Of a DNA stretch of 64,000 nucleotides, positions 1,863 to 10,631 are shown piece after piece (position 1 is the stretch's first letter; each line of letters starts with the position of its first letter). The notes beneath the pieces are model-generated. The model saw nothing but the letters and a program-made list of their open reading frames with translations, made no database searches and was not told the origin of the DNA. The stretch lies in the NCBI GenBank assembly GCA_963719515.1, contig CAVRCJ010000014.1:64001-128000 (forward strand), written 5' to 3'. This DNA comes from an uncultured cyanobacterium. Its GTDB lineage: Bacteria; Cyanobacteriota; Cyanobacteriia; CAKZMO01. The position numbers and the translations under genes were made by a program.

Positions 1863-4061
1863 ATGGCGCATCGCTTGCCAGCGCTCTTCAATGCCCGCCT
1901 GTCGCGTCGAATCGTTTTGTGGGTGTTTGCCAGTATCGTCTTGATAGAAATCATCGTTCTTATTCCCTCTGTGTTTCGGCGGGAAAGAGAGCTGTTGAAG
2001 TATCTGACACTGATATCAGCGGCAAAGGCATCGGGTGTTTTGGAGGCCACGTCGGCGAAAGATGAAGACGCGATTTTAAGGGTTCTCAGCACCGCCCAAG
2101 ATGACGTTGCTTTAGGCGGGGCGCTGTACCGCGTCGATGGTGAGCTGGTGGGTGAGTTTGGGGAGCCTCCCCGCCTCACGTTTGAGCAAATCAGTAGGGG
2201 ACGCAAAGAGTACCTGAACCGACGTCTAGGACGGTATGACGCCGTTTGGCAGATGCCGCCGCTAGATGATAGGTATTTGGTGGTGATTCGCCACAACGCC
2301 GACATTCGCAGCGAGTTCTTAGCATTCATTGCCCGAGTGATGGGCCTGGTGGTGATCATTTCGATTTTCGTCACCATTGCCACCATGATCGTGCTCAACC
2401 GGCTGCTGATTCACCCGATTGTGAGGCTGCGGCGCGACCTGCGGCGGGTGGGGCAAGCGCTCAGCCAAGATCAAAGTGCCGTTGTGGTACCGCCGCTGCC
2501 TTCGATTGATCCTCAGCGGAAAGACGAGCTAGGGGAGGTGATGGCGGCGTTTGTGCAGATGGTGCACCAAATTGCAGATGCGATCGCCAACCGACAGCGC
2601 ATGGAAGTAGAGCTACGCATCTCTGAAGAGAAGTTTTCCAAGGCCTTTTCCTCCAGCCCAGACGCTGTTACTATCAGCACGCTTGCGGAGGGGCGGCTGC
2701 TAGAGGTCAACGAGACTTTTCTCGAAGTTGTTGGGTTGGCCCATGGGGATGTCATCAACCGCACCATCGGGGAACTCGGATTTTGGCCTGACCTCACGGC
2801 GCGAAGCCCCTTGATCGAAACGCTGCAGCGGGACGGACGACTGCGCAACCAAGAATATCAGTTTCGCACGGCGCGCGGGCAGCTAAGGACGGCGCTCTAC
2901 TCCGCAGAGCAAATCATGCTGAATGATGAGCTCTGTATTCTATCTGTCATCAACGACATCACGGAGCGTAAGCAGGCGGAAGAAGCCCTACGGGAGAGCG
3001 AAAATCGCTTTCGGGCGCTGATTGCCCAGGCGGTAGATGCCCTATTTGTCATTAACCGCGAAGGTCGCCTCGTGGACGTCAACCAGCAGGCCTGCTCAAA
3101 CCTGGGGTATGAGCGTGAGGCGCTCTTGCGCCTGTCGGTTCCGGATATTGAGGTGAATCTCTCGGCGGCAGACGTCAGTCAGCTGTGGCAGCAGCTGAAG
3201 CCCGGGCAGCCCATCACCATAGACGGGGTTCACTGTCGGCGAGATGGCACGACCTTTCCCGTGGAGGTGCGGCTGGGTCTGATTCAGTTTGGCGGTCGCC
3301 AGCTTATTTTGGCCCTGGCCCGAGATATTACCGAGCGCCGGCAGGCGGAGGCGGCAATCGCCCGGCTCGCAGAAATTGGGGAGCTGTCCTCAATGATTGT
3401 GCATGAAGTGCGCAACCCGCTGACAACAGTAATGATGGGCCTTAGCTCGTTTAAGCGGCTAGATCTGCCTGAGCGATCGCAGCTGCGGCTGGCGCTGGCG
3501 CTGGAAGAATCAGAGCGGCTACAGCGGCTGCTCAACGAAATTCTCATGTACGCCAAAGAGCCGCAGCTGGAAATGGTGCCTATTGAGCTAGTCTCGCTGT
3601 GCTACGAGATTCGCGACACCCTTCTACCCCAACCTATGGCGCAAGACCGACAGATTGAGCTGAAGACGCTATCCTATGGGTCAGTTGAGGTTGCGGGCGA
3701 TCGCGACAAGCTCAAGCAGGTGTTTATCAACCTGGTGACCAACGCCTGTGAGGCCAGTCCGGCGGGGGCAACGGTCACCTGGCAGGTGACCGTCACCGAT
3801 GGTCAGGCGATGATCCAGATTCACAACGGCGGCGCTCCGATTCCACCCGACGTCTTGCCCAAGCTCACCCAGCCTTTCTTCACCACAAAATCCTCGGGCA
3901 ACGGGCTAGGTCTTGCCATTACTAAACGAATTGTGGAGGCCCACGGTGGGGAGCTAGCGATCGAGTCGCTGGTTGACGAGGGGACGACGGTGACCGTGAC
4001 GCTGAGCCTCAAACCGCTGAATCTGGAGACGCTGGCTTTTGGCACATCGGAGCTAGATTAG
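1863..4061 (+). CDS. membrane sensor histidine kinase (2 TM, HAMP, 2 PAS, HisKA, HATPase)
   Basis: DELGEV HAMP, DITERK PAS ends, HEVRNPL H-box, NLVTNA N-box, PFFTTK, GNGLGL. Confidence 0.93.
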   Translation: MAHRLPALFNARLSRRIVLWVFASIVLIEIIVLIPSVFRRERELLKYLTLISAAKASGVLEATSAKDEDAILRVLSTAQDDVALGGALYRVDGELVGEFGEPPRLTFEQISRGRKEYLNRRLGRYDAVWQMPPLDDRYLVVIRHNADIRSEFLAFIARVMGLVVIISIFVTIATMIVLNRLLIHPIVRLRRDLRRVGQALSQDQSAVVVPPLPSIDPQRKDELGEVMAAFVQMVHQIADAIANRQRMEVELRISEEKFSKAFSSSPDAVTISTLAEGRLLEVNETFLEVVGLAHGDVINRTIGELGFWPDLTARSPLIETLQRDGRLRNQEYQFRTARGQLRTALYSAEQIMLNDELCILSVINDITERKQAEEALRESENRFRALIAQAVDALFVINREGRLVDVNQQACSNLGYEREALLRLSVPDIEVNLSAADVSQLWQQLKPGQPITIDGVHCRRDGTTFPVEVRLGLIQFGGRQLILALARDITERRQAEAAIARLAEIGELSSMIVHEVRNPLTTVMMGLSSFKRLDLPERSQLRLALALEESERLQRLLNEILMYAKEPQLEMVPIELVSLCYEIRDTLLPQPMAQDRQIELKTLSYGSVEVAGDRDKLKQVFINLVTNACEASPAGATVTWQVTVTDGQAMIQIHNGGAPIPPDVLPKLTQPFFTTKSSGNGLGLAITKRIVEAHGGELAIESLVDEGTTVTVTLSLKPLNLETLAFGTSELD

Positions 4062-5634
4062 GCACAAGGGCAGGGTGCAGCGGCAGGTTGGCCAGTCCGT
4101 ACCCTACCTGACTACCCAGCCAAGCCGAGGATACAGGCGCGTCTTGACCCTCAGAGACTTGATTGATGCAGGCCCCGGGGGTGAGAGCCTCGGAGGTGGC
4201 CACAATGGACGGTGACAGCAGCGTCGCTTCTGAAAAGCAGCGCCGCGCCCACAAGGCTACGACAGGCATCGACGCCGTTCCGCCAGAGCAGATGACCTGC
4301 TGGATGGCTTGCGGAGAGACTCCAGCTTGTTGAATGAGAGACTCGACCTGCTGATTGATTGTCTGAATGTAGGGCAGCAAAATTTGGTGACCCAGCTCAT
4401 CTTGAGTCACCTGTCCGCGATGCTGGGCCAGGGTGTAGGTCGCCCGAGGCTGGGTTTGTAGCTCATGCTTGAGAAACTGGGCGATCGCCAGCAGCCGCCG
4501 CCCAGTGTTGGAGCTGCACAGGCGCAGCTGGAGCTGCCGTCGTCTAGCGCTGTCAGGCTGACTGAGCTGGGGCCGCTCTAACGTATCGAGCTGTAGAGCA
4601 CTGAGCAACTGCTCAACTTCTGCGAGGGGCGAGGCCTGAAGCTGCGGATAGAGCAGGTGGTAGAGGATATCTTGATCGATAGCCAGGCCGCCATAGGCTA
4701 TAGAGTGGGTGGCTATGGGACGCTGACCTTTGGCTAGCGTAGCCAAATCGACTAGCGCTAGCTCGGTTGTGCTGGCCCCCGCACTGACAACAAACGCCAG
4801 CCCCTCGGCAGCTAAGTGCAGGGTGGAGTCGGCAGGGCCAGAGTCAGTAGAGCCAAGATCGGTAGAACCAGCCGCAGGCTGCAGGCAGGCGAGGACAGTA
4901 GCAGTAGTTTCTTCTACGAAATAAATCTTTTTAGGCTCTGGGACTAAGCCTGCGTCCAAAATAGCGTTTTGCAAATTGGTTTGATACTGGCTCGACCAAT
5001 CGCCCGGAAAACTTACCCCAATGCCCGCCAGCTCCTGCATCGCCGCCTCAAATTGGCCTTGCTCAAGACCAAGACCGCTGCAGCGCCAGGCTGAGGGTTG
5101 ACCTGAGCCTGATTTTAAAGTGCCTAGGATCTGGGCCAGTGGCTTGTAGGCGGGTTCCATCAATGGGGAATGCTCCCGCGTACCCGCCAGCCCGCGCCGC
5201 AGTGGAAGAGCCAGGGCAGGTTTGAGCTGAGAGAGAATGGCGGCCTCTGCTGATGGAGTAGGAATGGGGTCAGTGGACTGATGCCGATTGGGGTCAATCG
5301 AAAGATCGACGGGCCACCGGAACCAGCGCTGGGGGACTTCGGCCTGCCACCAGAAGAGCGGTGCCCTCCGCTGGGTCTGCCGATTCAAAAGAACGGCAGA
5401 GAGTCCTACGGTGCCGATATCTAGCCCCAAAAACCACGTGCCAGAGGGAAGCGCGGCGGGCGGCGGGACAGCTTCAGCGGACTGCGCCGCTTGTGCGTCA
5501 TGGGCCTCTGTCCCTAATCCGGCCAGTGCCGGAAACAGGGGGCGTCCTGGGGGTAGCTTGATGCTGTGCTTCTGTGGGGGCGCATCTTTCGCATCCCGAA
5601 TAGTCCAGCTAATTGGACCTACTTTTTTTTTTCG
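4009..5634 (-). CDS. Hsp70/actin-fold ATPase-domain reading frame; no ATG/GTG upstream of the domain, probably reached by -1 frameshift from the upstream gene
   Basis: WFLGLDIGT (phosphate-1), FVEETTA, SAGASTTE (phosphate-2), YGGLAID, ICSGGTASMP (adenosine). Frame is open from 5634 (after TGA 5637-5635); the track start TTG 5430 lies inside the phosphate-1 strand. Confidence 0.75.
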   Translation of the reverse strand, partial: RKKKVGPISWTIRDAKDAPPQKHSIKLPPGRPLFPALAGLGTEAHDAQAAQSAEAVPPPAALPSGTWFLGLDIGTVGLSAVLLNRQTQRRAPLFWWQAEVPQRWFRWPVDLSIDPNRHQSTDPIPTPSAEAAILSQLKPALALPLRRGLAGTREHSPLMEPAYKPLAQILGTLKSGSGQPSAWRCSGLGLEQGQFEAAMQELAGIGVSFPGDWSSQYQTNLQNAILDAGLVPEPKKIYFVEETTATVLACLQPAAGSTDLGSTDSGPADSTLHLAAEGLAFVVSAGASTTELALVDLATLAKGQRPIATHSIAYGGLAIDQDILYHLLYPQLQASPLAEVEQLLSALQLDTLERPQLSQPDSARRRQLQLRLCSSNTGRRLLAIAQFLKHELQTQPRATYTLAQHRGQVTQDELGHQILLPYIQTINQQVESLIQQAGVSPQAIQQVICSGGTASMPVVALWARRCFSEATLLSPSIVATSEALTPGACINQVSEGQDAPVSSAWLGSQVGYGLANLPLHPALVPNLAPMCQKPASPDSAV

Positions 5635-8198
5635 TCATCTTCTATCTCAGAGAATGTCCAGGGAGTTGTCTCAATATTGTCCGACGCCGGCGAGTTGACG
5701 GGAACCTCCGCTTCTCCAGCAGGCTTGAGCAAGTCGGCCAAGGTTTGCTCTGCGATCGCAGAACGATCGGACGGGCTATCTTCGCTCCCCTCAAGGGCCG
5801 CAAACAGCGCGGCAATTTCGTCGATTGTCGATTCGTCCTCAGCAAAGGGGTCGACTTCCACCTCTGGTGGGGCCGGTTCGCTAGAGGCCAACTCGCCAAA
5901 GATAGGGCCGTCGGCGGTAGATTCTTCCTCCCGACCCTCTTCGTCATCGTCCATTTCGGGCAGGGGCTGAAAGATCTCGGCGGGTTGCGAGAAGGGGCCG
6001 AGGGGAGGGGCCGATTCGTTGGTCGGCTCGCCTGCAGGCTCTTCGGGGTCTGTCTCTGGCAGCGGCGAGGTTAGGCCTGCAGGCGAGCTATCGACGGCGA
6101 AGAAGGCGTCATCCGGCGATAGAAACCCCGATACTGGGGCCCCATCTTCAGGGGTAATATCGGGCTCTACCGTATCGGGATCCATATCGCGCTCGACGTC
6201 GGGTTCAACAGGGGAGCGATCGCTCCCCTCAATGCGAGACAGGTCAGCTGTGAGCTGGTCGATATCTATATCGAAGTTGGCGAAGGGCTTAGCGCTATCG
6301 CCACTCGTGGGCAATAGATCTTCCCCTAAGGACGCCATGGTGAACGAGTTGCTGGTACCTGAGGTGTCCTCCATTCCCATCTGAATTAGAAGGTTGGGGT
6401 CGATTAGATCTGATAAGCGAGTGATGGTGTCTATGTCGGTAGTGCCTGTGATATCGGTACTTTCGTCATCGACGCTTTCCCCACCGGCATCCGCAACGTC
6501 AACGTCTGCGCCATCGGCACCGATATCGCGATCGATATCATGGGTGGTGTCTAGATCAGTAGCGCCTATATCGGCGGTGTTGATGTCAGGGGTAGTTTCA
6601 CCAGCTGCGTCTAGATTTGCGGCGCTCAGTTCAAAAGGCGTCTGGGGGTCAGGCTCCCGACGCTGTGTCTCGCTCCCCCCTTCAGAGGGCCCCTCTGTAG
6701 CCGCTCGAAACTCTGCATAAAATGACGCAATCTCATCACTTGGGTCGACTGAAAACTCGGGCGGACTGTCACCGTCCGCTGCTGGAGGACCGTCCGCTGC
6801 TGAGGGACTGTCTGCTGGGGTATTGTCTGCTGCTGGGGGACTGCCTGAAGATGCGGGCTCTTCCGCCGCTTCTTGCAGGTCAGCTTGCTCTGACGTCAGC
6901 GGCTCAAACTCCTCACCCCCAAAGACTGCGGCTTCATTGACCGTCACGCCATCATCCCCTAGCTCGAACAGGGCGATCGCCTCGTCGGAATCTCCTTCAG
7001 GGCTCTCTGTCAAGGCCGTCAGGTCAACCCCCTCTAAATCAAGACTGAGGTCATTGCCAATAGCGTCAATGTCGGCCTCTAAATCTTGGAGGAGTTGATC
7101 GATCAAGTCGTCGGTATCAAGCTGAGCGGGCGCGGCCTGAGGGATGGCCCCCTGACCGCGCCCCTCTAGCGGCATTTCTACCGGCATCTCCAGCGGCATT
7201 TCTGAGGGAGTTTGCGGCAGGTTTTGGCGTAAAATCTGGTCGATCTGATCCGCAGACAAGTCCTCTGCCGCAGAGACGCTGTCTGGGGCGACGGCGTCGC
7301 CGATGATACTGCGATCAGGTTCCGGAGGCTGGTCGTCAGACAGGTCGCCTGGGCCTACCAAGCTGGCTTGCCCATCTTTCGTGGACAATAGCCGCTCTCC
7401 CAACGGGGCTGTGCTGCCGAGCTGAGTATTGGCCCCCTCGGACAGCGAGTGGTTGAGGTAATTTGAAGCCTCGCGCCCGAGCTGGGTTGCCAAACGGTTC
7501 ACTAGAGCTGCAAACAGCGTCTCTCCCTGCTGTCCCAAGCTGTGCATTTTCTCCAGGCCTTGGCCCAGCGAGTCTCCATAGCTGTCGATGGTGCTCTGCA
7601 AAGAGTCGAATACCACCCGCATGGTGGAGTCCATCTTTAGCATAAGCTCGTTTGATGTCGCCTGTAGAGCCCGCAGCTGCTCTACCTGCTGCGCTCCGCT
7701 GAGCTGTGGCACCCCTTCGCCATCAGGATCGCCCGAGAGCTGGGGCTGCATCAGAGCGATCGCCTGCACCACTTGGGTGGTCATCTGGTCCTGCAGACGC
7801 GCCATGAGAGACTGCATGAAGTCTTGGAGCATTTGCTGCTGCATCGCCTGCTGCTGAGAGGTCTGCAGCTGCTGCTGCTGCTGCTGTAGCTGGCGCACGG
7901 TGCTAGCCAGCTGCTTTCGCTCATCGTGGAGCTGCGTGATCTCCTCGCGCAGGGGCTGAATCATATTGGCTCGCAGGTAGCCCATTTCCTGCACCACCGC
8001 CTGCAGAACCTGCTGGGCGCTGGCCTCTTGCGACTCGACCTGTGACGCCTTCCCACTGCGCTGCAGCTCCACCAGATAGCTGCGAGTTTCGGCGATCGCC
8101 GCCTGCTGTCGGGCCTGCGCCTCAGGGGTTGAAGAATCTCTGAGCGCTAAGTCAAGCTGGTCGATCAGCGCTTTCAGCTGGGCTCGATTAGAAGTCAC
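5619..8198 (-). CDS. large protein with N-terminal Gln-rich coiled coil and long acidic disordered tail
   Basis: 874-aa track ORF; GTG 8198 (MTSNRAQLKALID) likely start; ends EKKK-stop on an A10 run. Confidence 0.85.
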   Translation of the reverse strand: MTSNRAQLKALIDQLDLALRDSSTPEAQARQQAAIAETRSYLVELQRSGKASQVESQEASAQQVLQAVVQEMGYLRANMIQPLREEITQLHDERKQLASTVRQLQQQQQQLQTSQQQAMQQQMLQDFMQSLMARLQDQMTTQVVQAIALMQPQLSGDPDGEGVPQLSGAQQVEQLRALQATSNELMLKMDSTMRVVFDSLQSTIDSYGDSLGQGLEKMHSLGQQGETLFAALVNRLATQLGREASNYLNHSLSEGANTQLGSTAPLGERLLSTKDGQASLVGPGDLSDDQPPEPDRSIIGDAVAPDSVSAAEDLSADQIDQILRQNLPQTPSEMPLEMPVEMPLEGRGQGAIPQAAPAQLDTDDLIDQLLQDLEADIDAIGNDLSLDLEGVDLTALTESPEGDSDEAIALFELGDDGVTVNEAAVFGGEEFEPLTSEQADLQEAAEEPASSGSPPAADNTPADSPSAADGPPAADGDSPPEFSVDPSDEIASFYAEFRAATEGPSEGGSETQRREPDPQTPFELSAANLDAAGETTPDINTADIGATDLDTTHDIDRDIGADGADVDVADAGGESVDDESTDITGTTDIDTITRLSDLIDPNLLIQMGMEDTSGTSNSFTMASLGEDLLPTSGDSAKPFANFDIDIDQLTADLSRIEGSDRSPVEPDVERDMDPDTVEPDITPEDGAPVSGFLSPDDAFFAVDSSPAGLTSPLPETDPEEPAGEPTNESAPPLGPFSQPAEIFQPLPEMDDDEEGREEESTADGPIFGELASSEPAPPEVEVDPFAEDESTIDEIAALFAALEGSEDSPSDRSAIAEQTLADLLKPAGEAEVPVNSPASDNIETTPWTFSEIEDDEKKK

Positions 8199-8404
8199 AA
8201 TGAGAGAATCCTGTGGGAGTGCAACAGTTGCCAGGTATAGCAAACGTCCTGATGCATTGGGACATTTGCGCGTTCAGTTGCCGACACAGCGTCGGGCTTT
8301 CAGCCGACTCTGGTGTCCTAAGCAACTGAGCCAATGCAATATAGCTCGGCTATAGCGTAGAGCTATCATATGACAGGAGAACCTGCTTCGCCAAAGATAG
8401 GCGC

Positions 8405-9154: not shown

Positions 9155-9310
9155 TGAGAAGCACCGAGGGACGTGACATCCTCCCGACGCTGATGCTACG
9201 CATACAGCGCGGGCTTCCTCAGTGACTCCCAGCTACCGCTGAGACATTTCCTGAGAGATTAAGGGCTTGATGTCCCACAGCCCTATTCAATAGGTTGATA
9301 GCCGCGTTGT
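9155..9310 (-). ncRNA. putative omega/reRNA overlapping the tnpB 3' end, with guide from the right flank
   Basis: Established TnpB architecture; scaffold conserved in the second copy; limits approximate. Confidence 0.6.
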
Positions 9311-10415
9311 GGTCGCGGCAGATCGTTAAGCCGCATGACGGGCAACTATGGACCCGATCGGCCAGCGTCTTTGGTACCCGCTCACCACAACCCGAGCAAT
9401 CAATGCTGGTTCCGCGTGGGTTCTCAGCGATGGTCATCTTTCCAGCTTTCGCGGCTTTGAAAGAGCCTATCTCCAAGAATGTACCCCATGCGGCATCAGC
9501 GATTGACTTTGCCAGTCTGGTTCGAGCAAGTCCTTTGATGTTGAGCTTTTCATGAGCGACAACATCGTACTTTGAAAACAGCCAATCCCACACCTTAGAA
9601 AAGAAATCACGGCGCTGACGCGATATCTTTAGGTGTAGTTTGGCTATACGATTCACCTGCTTACGCCAGCGGTTAGAGCCCTTCTTCTGTCTCGATAGCT
9701 GCCGCTGCAGCTTGGATAGCTGCCGCTCTGAGCGTCGAAAGAACTGAGGGATAGGAACGCTCTCACCGTCACTGGTAACCAAGAAATCCTTCAGCCCAAC
9801 GTCAACACCGACAGACTTAGCCCTATCGACATCCGGAGTAAGCATCGGAACGGCATTGTTTTCCAGTAACAGGCTCACATACCAACCATCTGCTTTGCGA
9901 GTCACCTTGGCCGTTTTGACAGTAAACCCATCAGGTATCGGGCGATGAAGGATTAGCTTCACCTGGCCAATCTTAGGCAGGGTAATACGACTTCCATCGA
10001 TGCAGTCAGGTTTCATCTGCGGGAACGTGAACGTCCTGTAGCGCCCCGCGCCTTTGAACCGAGGCTTGCCGCTACGCTTACCGTTTTTATCACCTTTGAT
10101 GAAACGCTCGAACGTCTGCTTTACCTGCTTCGTCACCTCCTGAAGCGCTTGTGAGTGCAAATCTTTGTACCAGGGTCGCTCTCGCTTGAGAGGTACTAGG
10201 CTAGCCTTCTGGCTGTAGTAATTAGGATTATCTTTGAGTGGCGCAAGGCTACAGGTGAGTGGGCAGGCGTTGACCGAACAGCGGTTCATCTCCCACCAGT
10301 CGAAGCGCTCAGCCAGCAACCAGTTGTACTGTGCCCGAAGCATGTCTAGCCATCGGGTCATGGTAACCGTTTGCTCAGCCGCTGGACGCAACTTGTACTG
10401 ATAAGTGACTTTCAT
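9219..10415 (-). CDS. tnpB: RNA-guided endonuclease TnpB
   Basis: MKVTYQYKLRP N-terminus, GKPRFK, RuvC GVDVG / HEKLN / RDHNAA, zinc ribbon CSGC..CPSC; start ATG 10415. Confidence 0.95.
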   Translation of the reverse strand: MKVTYQYKLRPAAEQTVTMTRWLDMLRAQYNWLLAERFDWWEMNRCSVNACPLTCSLAPLKDNPNYYSQKASLVPLKRERPWYKDLHSQALQEVTKQVKQTFERFIKGDKNGKRSGKPRFKGAGRYRTFTFPQMKPDCIDGSRITLPKIGQVKLILHRPIPDGFTVKTAKVTRKADGWYVSLLLENNAVPMLTPDVDRAKSVGVDVGLKDFLVTSDGESVPIPQFFRRSERQLSKLQRQLSRQKKGSNRWRKQVNRIAKLHLKISRQRRDFFSKVWDWLFSKYDVVAHEKLNIKGLARTRLAKSIADAAWGTFLEIGSFKAAKAGKMTIAENPRGTSIDCSGCGERVPKTLADRVHSCPSCGLTICRDHNAAINLLNRAVGHQALNLSGNVSAVAGSH

Positions 10416-10448
10416 GCAATAATGATAGCATATTGACATCAGAACGAC

Positions 10449-10631
10449 ATGCAGCAAATAACTATTAGAGCCGCTGACAGAGAAAAGCAGCATCTTGACA
10501 AGTATTGTGAGATGACCGAAAGAACTATCAACGATGTCCTTAGGGAGTACATCCGAAGTTTGGCCGTCTCCGGGGCATTGAGCCCCATCGACGACCGCGA
10601 CTCTCATCCCGACGCTCACCCTGACGGGTAG
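10449..10631 (+). CDS. CopG/ribbon-helix-helix DNA-binding protein inside the IS
   Basis: MQQITIR beta strand followed by helices (EKQHLDKYC; TINDVLREYIRSL). Confidence 0.75.
   Translation: MQQITIRAADREKQHLDKYCEMTERTINDVLREYIRSLAVSGALSPIDDRDSHPDAHPDG

Follow-up and report, generated by a model that had tools for sequence, protein, structure and literature searches.

A conserved A10 run between a scaffold frame and an Hsp70-like ATPase frame is a candidate recoding site in cyanobacteria

Does a run of ten adenines (A10), at which one long reading frame ends and another one opens, separate two genes or join the parts of a single gene? The question is raised by a locus on the minus strand of contig CAVRCJ010000014.1 (GCA_963719515.1) from an uncultured cyanobacterium. 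We analyzed positions 64,001-128,000 of the forward strand of this contig; this whole 64-kb stretch is referred to as the window, and all positions are given in window numbering. The frame upstream of the run (frame 0) encodes a scaffold-type protein of 859 amino acids (aa), and the -1 frame leads from the run into an ATPase domain resembling that of Hsp70. A first-pass annotation of the letters had proposed that a programmed -1 frameshift or slippage joins the two. Comparison with homologous loci indicates that the locus is very probably one gene with a conserved recoding site, and that some slippage occurs during its expression.

Frame 0 of the minus strand reads GAT GAC GAA AAA AAA AAG TAG at the junction. 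The -1 frame is closed by a TGA just 5' of the run; past this stop it reads CGA AAA AAA AAA GTA GGT CCA and remains open until the stop codon at 4009-4011. Counted from GTA 5622, it consists of 537 codons, is start-less, and enters the Hsp70-like domain. No ATG, GTG, or TTG was found in the 65 codons of this frame that precede WFLGLDIGT in the window; the first TTG, at 5430, encodes the Leu of W-F-L. The first-pass annotation was therefore correct as to the A10 run that ends the upstream frame in TAG, the TGA that shuts the -1 frame ahead of the run, and the lack of an ATG or GTG before the ATPase domain, whose first TTG lies inside the phosphate-1 strand. Its fusion length of ~1396 aa agrees with 859 + 537 codons. 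The length of ~859 aa that it gave for the upstream protein also held, with a GTG at 8198 rather than an ATG as the start. The open reading frame (ORF) had been listed as 5619..8243, counting from TTG 8243; alignment with homologues moved the start to GTG 8198, which encodes the conserved V of a V-T-S-Q motif.

The genome to which the window belongs (5.28 Mb, 57% GC) contains two A/T runs of 10 nucleotides (nt) and nine of 9 nt. Among these 11 runs, only the junction A10 is flanked by two long open frames (880 codons upstream, 537 downstream). The rarity of long A/T runs, together with this unique position, indicates that the junction is more than a chance arrangement. Short open frames flank the other A/T10 run of the genome (C1:23637-23646). 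An A9 run outside the window, on contig C11 (241815-241823), is embedded in a long frame that is open in one and the same phase for 701 codons upstream and 41 codons downstream.

A six-frame search of 40 related genomes revealed the ATPase in 32 of 41 genomes, the window's own included, and in nearly all genomes the ATPase homologue was immediately preceded by a scaffold homologue. In four other species of the genus, the ATPase had 56-66% aa identity to that of the window; the first matched query residue was 1 or 2, which is also where the open frame started. The junction was (G/C)-A10-GTAG in all five species, and in all five the -1 frame encoded the peptide KKKV(A)GPISW(T/A)I...PPGR(P/R)LFP straight from the run. 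Changes after the run fell mostly on third positions of the -1 frame (GGT/GGC, CCA/CCC/CCG/CCT, AGC/AGT), and variable sites were distributed over the three codon positions as 44/37/65 (73 ungapped codon columns, five species). The junction flanks had otherwise diverged among these species, with a synonymous substitution rate (dS) of about 1.5-2. The -1 frame opened 2 nt before the run in four of the five loci and 32 nt before it in L005. A scan of metagenomes for the genus-type junction pattern with A8-A12 gave no match.

We then compared 106 distinct loci, comprising 30 loci from 30 related genomes and 76 further loci from a pattern-based scan (8-sequence alignment) of species-representative genomes. 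In that scan 518 contigs encode a relative; 79 of these loci were sampled, and three duplicates of the first sample were removed. In the first sample, 17 loci need a -1 shift, eight need a +1 shift, and three are in frame, all 28 having A9-A10 at the junction; the other two are in-frame fusions without a run. The second sample contained 39 loci with an A8-A11 run (31 in frame, five at -1, three at +1) and 37 without a run (31 single frames of 1248-2203 aa, five loci at a contig end, and one with an N gap). Overall, a run was present at the junction of 67 of the 106 loci: A10 in 55, A9 in 10, A11 in one, and A8 in one. Split frames were found in 33 loci (22 requiring -1 and 11 requiring +1), 34 loci were in frame with a run, and 39 had no run. 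All 33 split loci had a run (A9-A11), and the number of split loci without one was zero. Run length was independent of frame state, with 55 of the 67 runs being A10. The downstream frame of split loci never opened past the run; it opened either at the run itself or as much as ~200 nt before it. Judging from the loci compared, a split locus cannot do without the run, whereas a fused one can. L077 (Westiellopsis prolifica), a candidate split locus lacking the run, was rejected; it has N inside the tandem repeat DDALLQDIIFDATDQNDDLSVHEEVI of the acidic region (5100-5120), and this assembly gap mimics a break. The family was found in Elainellales, Leptolyngbya-like, Oscillatoria, and Nostocales genomes. 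Across cyanobacteria, then, orthologous loci retain the run at the junction, whether their two parts are in a -1, a +1, or an in-frame relation. The orthologues are neither uniformly in-frame fusions (33 of 106 are split) nor poly-A-free separate genes that each have a start (none among the 106 loci), the two arrangements that the first-pass annotation had regarded as incompatible with its proposal.

Ratios of nonsynonymous to synonymous substitution rates (dN/dS) were calculated for pairs of loci in the split state. Values were 0.11-0.26 for the downstream frames, at dS 0.8-2.0, and 0.13-0.23 for the upstream parts; pairs without an estimable dS (L004/L005 for both parts, L001/L002 and L050/L089 for the upstream part) were left out. 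The substitution patterns show that, from the run onward, the downstream frame is under purifying selection. Among loci of the -1 class, the median distance from the run to the end of the frame-0 stop is 6 nt. In eight tabulated loci of the +1 class, the median distances to the stop were 16 nt in frame 0 and 3 nt in the -1 frame, the junction often reading A10-TAA or A10-TAG. Outside Nostocales, in-frame loci had both of the remaining frames closed by stops at 5-31 nt past the run. Because only 57% of the Lys codons outside the run are AAA in these genes, an unbroken A10 is not expected from Lys coding alone. The run is thus conserved at the nucleotide level beyond the Lys residues that it encodes, being retained at dS 0.8-2, with the exception of Nostocales.

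The retention of the run across many cyanobacteria, whatever the frame relation, makes slippage that leads to both products the most likely explanation. Standard decoding would yield the 859-aa protein, composed of a coiled-coil N-terminal domain and an acidic disordered tail ending in KKK. In a fraction of expression events, slippage on A10 would lead into the -1 frame, through the disordered linker, and on to the ATPase, giving the 1396-aa fusion. We infer the slippage itself, its level, and the making and use of both isoforms from the sequences; the fixed product ratio put forward by the first-pass annotation is likewise conjectural. By analogy with the tau/gamma products of dnaX and OrfA/OrfAB of insertion sequences (IS), the short and long isoforms may co-assemble through their shared N-terminal helices. 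As a working guess, the protein self-assembles into a scaffold to which ATPase heads are attached in sub-stoichiometric amounts.

RNA polymerase slippage is our leading candidate for the main route, with chances that appear about even. The fusion would then be encoded by A11 transcripts, which have gained one A, and ribosomal slippage on the same Lys codons might contribute. RNA polymerase is favored by the occurrence of both -1 and +1 loci, since one mechanism that adds or drops A's covers both. The run is the only conserved element at the junction, and its length is near 10 in every frame state; an uninterrupted A/T run of about 9 or more within a coding region at a frame junction, as looked for in transcriptional slippage, is present. 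According to the available part of PMC3711429, a frame change of 40-63% was obtained in Escherichia coli reporters with runs of 9-11 A, and the dnaX genes of Thermus and Chlorobi use A9-A10 runs for transcriptional slippage.

The same two isoforms could also arise mainly at the ribosome, through a -1 shift on A_AAA_AAA/A_AAA_AAG or through sliding on Lys codons, with a +1 or -2 shift on the same run in lineages of the +1 class. It is quite possible that this is the main route, and ribosomal slippage is nearly as likely as RNA polymerase slippage. The heptamers are in the right phase, with a stop immediately after them, and sliding of ribosomes on iterated AAA codons has been described (Koutmou 2015, as cited in the accessible text of PMC8254509). 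However, 11 of the 33 split loci require a +1 shift, which -1 shifting by ribosomes of the dnaX kind would not explain. No conserved stimulator was found, and the 3' context differs between genera. No Shine-Dalgarno-like element upstream of the run was shared: the 20 nt upstream differ among the five genus species, and inspection by eye revealed nothing resembling GGAGG. An Rfam scan gave no match to a frameshift element. The small hairpin to which the first-pass annotation drew attention does exist, but a stimulatory role is not supported. Of its five weak pairs in the five genus species, three are invariant (Pro CC/Trp GG), one is compensatory, and one is broken in two species; the hairpin follows from conserved Pro and Trp codons and was not counted as a stimulator. 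No matching hairpin was seen by eye in the unfolded sequences of other genera, where the post-run sequence is unrelated, and a conserved RNA structure 5-9 nt after the heptamer was not found. Of the hallmarks of a -1 shift of dnaX/IS3 type, with which the first-pass annotation had compared the site, the heptamer in phase is present; a conserved structure, a conserved Shine-Dalgarno-like element, and a uniform direction were not found. On the plus strand, the hairpin and T10 at 5603-5632 score as intrinsic-terminator-like, with a stem that is not conserved outside the genus; a promoter/terminator scan gave results at shuffle level (three terminator-like hits, this site among them, versus 3.0 expected).

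Several observations weigh against a conserved run acting mainly through RNA polymerase. The genome has a single tRNA-Lys, with anticodon UUU, the condition that Tsuchihashi and Brown reportedly showed in 1992 to make A_AAA_AAG shifty for ribosomes. The chloroplast expression machinery is of cyanobacterial origin, and oligo-A recoding in chloroplast atpB, for which an uninterrupted A tract is needed, was assigned to translation: as far as the accessible text of PMC8254509 goes, atpB cDNA showed no slippage at a detection limit of 5-15%, and frame correction was put down to the ribosome. Nostocales have the gene in frame in every case, with a run that is A10, A9, A7 (by a 3-nt deletion), or interrupted by substitutions; this lability indicates that the run is not strongly constrained everywhere. 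Among 120 Nostoc-type proteins, the junction residues were KKK in 52, KK in 37, and neither in 31, the last group including one protein labeled Nostoc punctiforme with the junction ETEEKQE. The public sequencing runs that matched the stretch were five DNA metagenome runs from two studies, with no RNA run among them; four of these yielded fragmentary contigs. The first-pass annotation had recommended checking A10 against A11 in reads; the sole contig across the run (X3, record 8) reads A10 ungapped and A11 was not seen, which is weak support at a depth of 4.2, and because this contig ends 14 nt past the run it was not counted as bridging. Finally, the numbers of state changes on a FastTree phylogeny of 96 ATPase domains (21 among the four states, nine in frame state among run-bearing loci, and 12 between run and no run) are rough, because many branches are long and only local supports are available; rows without the search motif (L046, L047, L049, L068, and L093) were left out of this tree.

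Explanations that dispense with slippage during expression are far less probable. If the locus consisted of two separate genes, the ATPase would be translated from a non-canonical start codon or by ribosomes that re-initiate past the TAG. Cyanobacterial genes often lack Shine-Dalgarno sequences, which could be offered for this view, and at least one ATG or GTG occurs in the linker of 19 of the 30 split loci tabulated. However, the positions of these candidate starts are not conserved, whereas the peptide right after the run is; the other 11 loci have no ATG or GTG in the linker, and in the window and L002 TTG is also absent before the phosphate-1 strand. In-frame fusions are moreover common in the family, and the downstream frame never opens past the run. 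We consider two separate genes very unlikely. An artefact, with a homopolymer assembly error hiding a true A11, or a recent frameshift pseudogene is extremely unlikely. A10 is error-prone on some platforms and the coverage of the run by public contigs is thin, but 33 independent assemblies are split at the same site with runs of A9-A11, both parts are under purifying selection, and the contig mentioned above agrees, weakly, with A10. Phase variation at the DNA level, in which replication would change the tract length and give fused (ON) or split (OFF) subpopulations, is likewise very improbable. Homopolymer tracts are replication-slippage hotspots (PMC3711429, in the part available), and frame state differs between some close relatives, such as L050 (+1) and L052 (in frame). 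Against this, run length is identical within five groups of relatives (the five genus species; L025/L034/L035; L037/L043/L044; L048/L053; L080/L084/L090), the 1-nt indel that distinguishes L050 from L052 lies beside the run and not within it, and the public contigs showed no indels, although a depth of ~4 makes this weak. The split state is genus-wide at dS >1.5, with a downstream dN/dS of 0.13-0.18, and thus is not a drifting OFF state.

The frame relation around the run has evidently changed during evolution. One basal clade of 13 loci in the FastTree phylogeny is wholly split. Between the close relatives L050 and L052, one base differs immediately 5' of an unchanged A10; because the contig end leaves 72 codons of the upstream part of L052, the state of this locus rests on the comparison with L050. 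A tentative extension of the recoding model is that the A10 tract has been kept since before the major filamentous lineages diverged and works as an evolvable isoform dial. Slippage would then fill all three frames, and single-base indels beside the tract would shift the locus between mostly fusion, when in frame, and mostly scaffold with some fusion, at -1 or +1, with neither product lost. The genomic frame state would then set how many subunits of a coiled-coil assembly carry the ATPase relative to bare scaffold. If so, selection would act on the frame relation of the recoding site itself as it evolves, in a large protein family that is widespread in filamentous cyanobacteria.

The features of the locus are listed in Table 1.

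Table 1. Features of the scaffold-ATPase locus in the window
Feature	Position	Strand	Description
Upstream ORF, frame 0	5619..8198	-	859-aa scaffold protein; GTG start at 8198; C-terminus ...EDDEKKK, then TAG
N-terminal helical (coiled-coil-type) domain	7419..8198	-	~260 aa; Q-rich (18.5% Q)
Acidic low-complexity region	5633..7418	-	~596 aa; poorly conserved; length varies among homologues
TGA closing the -1 frame just 5' of A10	5635..5637	-	Read from the sequence
A10 run, proposed slippage site	5623..5632	-	A_AAA_AAA and A_AAA_AAG heptamers in frame-0 phase
TAG stop, frame 0	5619..5621	-	One base (G) after A10; identical in 5/5 genus species
Hairpin GGTCCA-ATTAGC-TGGACT	5602..5619	-	2 nt after the G of the heptamer, 3 nt after the last A of the run
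Linker, -1 frame	5437..5622	-	62 codons; Pro/Ala-rich; predicted disordered; starts VGPISWTIR; contains PPGRPLFP; no start codon
Hsp70 nucleotide-binding-domain-like (ASKHA) ATPase domain	4012..5436	-	475 aa; no substrate-binding domain; stop 4009-4011

Structure prediction and composition confirmed the coiled-coil and acidic character that the first-pass annotation had attributed to the upstream part. The N-terminal domain is the sole part of this protein that is conserved across the class in the alignment. Its AlphaFold2 (AF2) model had a predicted local distance difference test score (pLDDT) of 69.5 and contained helices at 69-169 and 183-270 (alignment numbering starting at TTG 8243), each of ~90-100 residues. 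A fold search of PDB with this domain gave no match at E <= 0.001, and Pfam and NCBIfam profile searches of the upstream protein gave only sub-threshold noise. A predicted complex of two copies of the domain scored 0.00, which gives no answer either way. The tail (residues 261-859, 599 aa) has 25% D+E and an isoelectric point of 4.05, and its 596 residues ahead of the terminal KKK include only three Lys. The Lys triplet is out of character in so Lys-poor a tail, which fits a run retained for its nucleotides. In a paralogous family of ~600-650 aa, the N-terminal helical domain is joined to a membrane transporter of EamA type (Pfam EamA, E 3.8e-10). Examples are L112:990-2864 (+) and hits in G029:C18 and G038:C1, and in genomes G022, G025, and G037 the paralogue lies within a few kb of the scaffold-ATPase locus. 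With the query used, no EamA-type paralogue was found in the window's own genome. Because it also occurs in these fusions, the N-terminal helical domain appears to be a portable module, possibly for assembly or targeting.

Structural modeling confirmed that the predicted fold of the downstream domain is the Hsp70/ASKHA fold; by profile score and domain content, the protein is not Hsp70 (PF00012) proper. The AF2 model of the downstream protein (25-row alignment) had a pLDDT of 76.9 and a predicted template modeling score of 0.78, with residues 1-61 disordered. In a Foldseek search against PDB, the top matches were Hsp70 nucleotide-binding domains (NBDs) (E 4e-13 to 1e-11, ~14% identity); at least 500 chains matched at E <= 0.001, and all 50 of the 50 listed belong to the Hsp70 family (DnaK, BiP, mortalin, Ssz1, Hsp110). 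These results uphold the Hsp70-fold ATPase of the first-pass annotation. Atlas feature matches to Hsp70 clusters had a score of 0.95. The Pfam HSP70 match (16.6 bits) was below its cutoff of 20.6, and NCBIfam HscA/DnaK matches reached 11-29 bits versus cutoffs above 600. The protein ends ~25 residues past the last modeled NBD helix, and a substrate-binding domain is absent. It contains the motifs LGLDIGTVG, SAGASTTELALV, and ICSGGTAS, which we take to be the phosphate-1, phosphate-2, and adenosine motifs, respectively. Loci L030 and L032 have degenerate phosphate-1 motifs (LGLEFSTQG and LGLDLNESG), so that ATP hydrolysis may be dispensable in some lineages. Most other genera have a C-terminal extension of ~130-150 aa after the NBD (consensus Y-DYFLL-ELLR...), which is absent from the window's genus. 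The ATPase ORF of the window ends soon after AYGLA-LPL and overlaps by 53 nt with a convergent histidine-kinase gene (1863-4061, +). About 1 kb upstream of the scaffold gene, 9219-10619 (-) encodes a TnpB/IS605 OrfB-like protein (OrfB_IS605, Cas12f1-like TNB, HTH_OrfB_IS605). The neighboring genes (histidine kinase, thioesterase, TnpB-like) gave no functional hint. Public gene calls (P0003-P0008) place the start of the ATPase inside its frame, so that the annotated protein has 343 aa in this genome and 446-504 aa in relatives; these starts drop the linker and, in some cases, the phosphate-1 strand. The public names seen were "hypothetical protein" throughout, with one "Hsp70 family protein".

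Annotation stands to benefit from this reading, which corrects gene calls that label the halves "hypothetical" and shorten the ATPase. If it is confirmed, a chromosomal, non-mobile, phylum-wide family would join the short list of bacterial cellular genes in which homopolymer slippage yields two proteins, and the locus points to an uncharacterized scaffold-plus-ATPase machine. The natural -1, +1, in-frame, and run-less variants could serve to separate RNA polymerase slippage from ribosomal slippage in cyanobacteria; the literature searched contained no measurement of either kind in this phylum. A description of the locus was not found in the literature search, and a prior listing in a frameshift catalogue is possible; one such catalogue, by Sharma et al., is said to have appeared in 2011. 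Whereas the class of mechanism is well known, what appears new is the gene family, its conservation throughout the phylum, and the occurrence of three frame states around a constant A10.

In its ATPase, the fusion resembles the NBDs of Hsp70 proteins, including Ssz1 of the ribosome-associated complex (PDB 5mb9_B, 4gni_B), with the same ASKHA fold and three motifs. Unlike Hsp70, it has only ~14% identity and no substrate-binding domain, and it is tethered to a coiled-coil/acidic scaffold. In its junction, the locus recalls two classes of recoding. E. coli dnaX and the IS3 family, both mentioned in PMC3711429 and PMC5009743, undergo -1 ribosomal frameshifting at A_AAA_AAG; they share with the window the heptamer in the same phase, fusion to a downstream catalytic domain, and a single tRNA-Lys(UUU). 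In contrast to these systems, the cyanobacterial loci have no conserved downstream stem-loop/pseudoknot or Shine-Dalgarno-like element, and one third of the split homologues need +1. Transcriptional slippage at homopolymers is represented by Thermus dnaX, IS elements, and Shigella mxiE, the slippage in Thermus thermophilus dnaX reportedly having been described by Larsen et al. in 2000. T. thermophilus dnaX (A9) and the two-ORF dnaX of Chlorobi (A10) have the same A9-A10 run within a gene, a shared N-terminus, close stops in the other frames, and a single ORF or two ORFs at the same run depending on the lineage (PMC3711429, in the part available). In Thermus the genomic frame gives the long product, whereas in the window it gives the short one, and the protein families are unrelated; slippage is established in Thermus dnaX, whereas the three frame relations across cyanobacteria are read from genome sequences. 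Chloroplast atpB shares with our locus an expression machinery of cyanobacterial descent, ~10 uninterrupted A, and tolerance of both insertions and deletions, as described in the accessible text of PMC8254509. In atpB, however, recoding rescues a mutation in an essential single-product gene, whereas here an ancient, genus-wide split would be bridged to join two modules.

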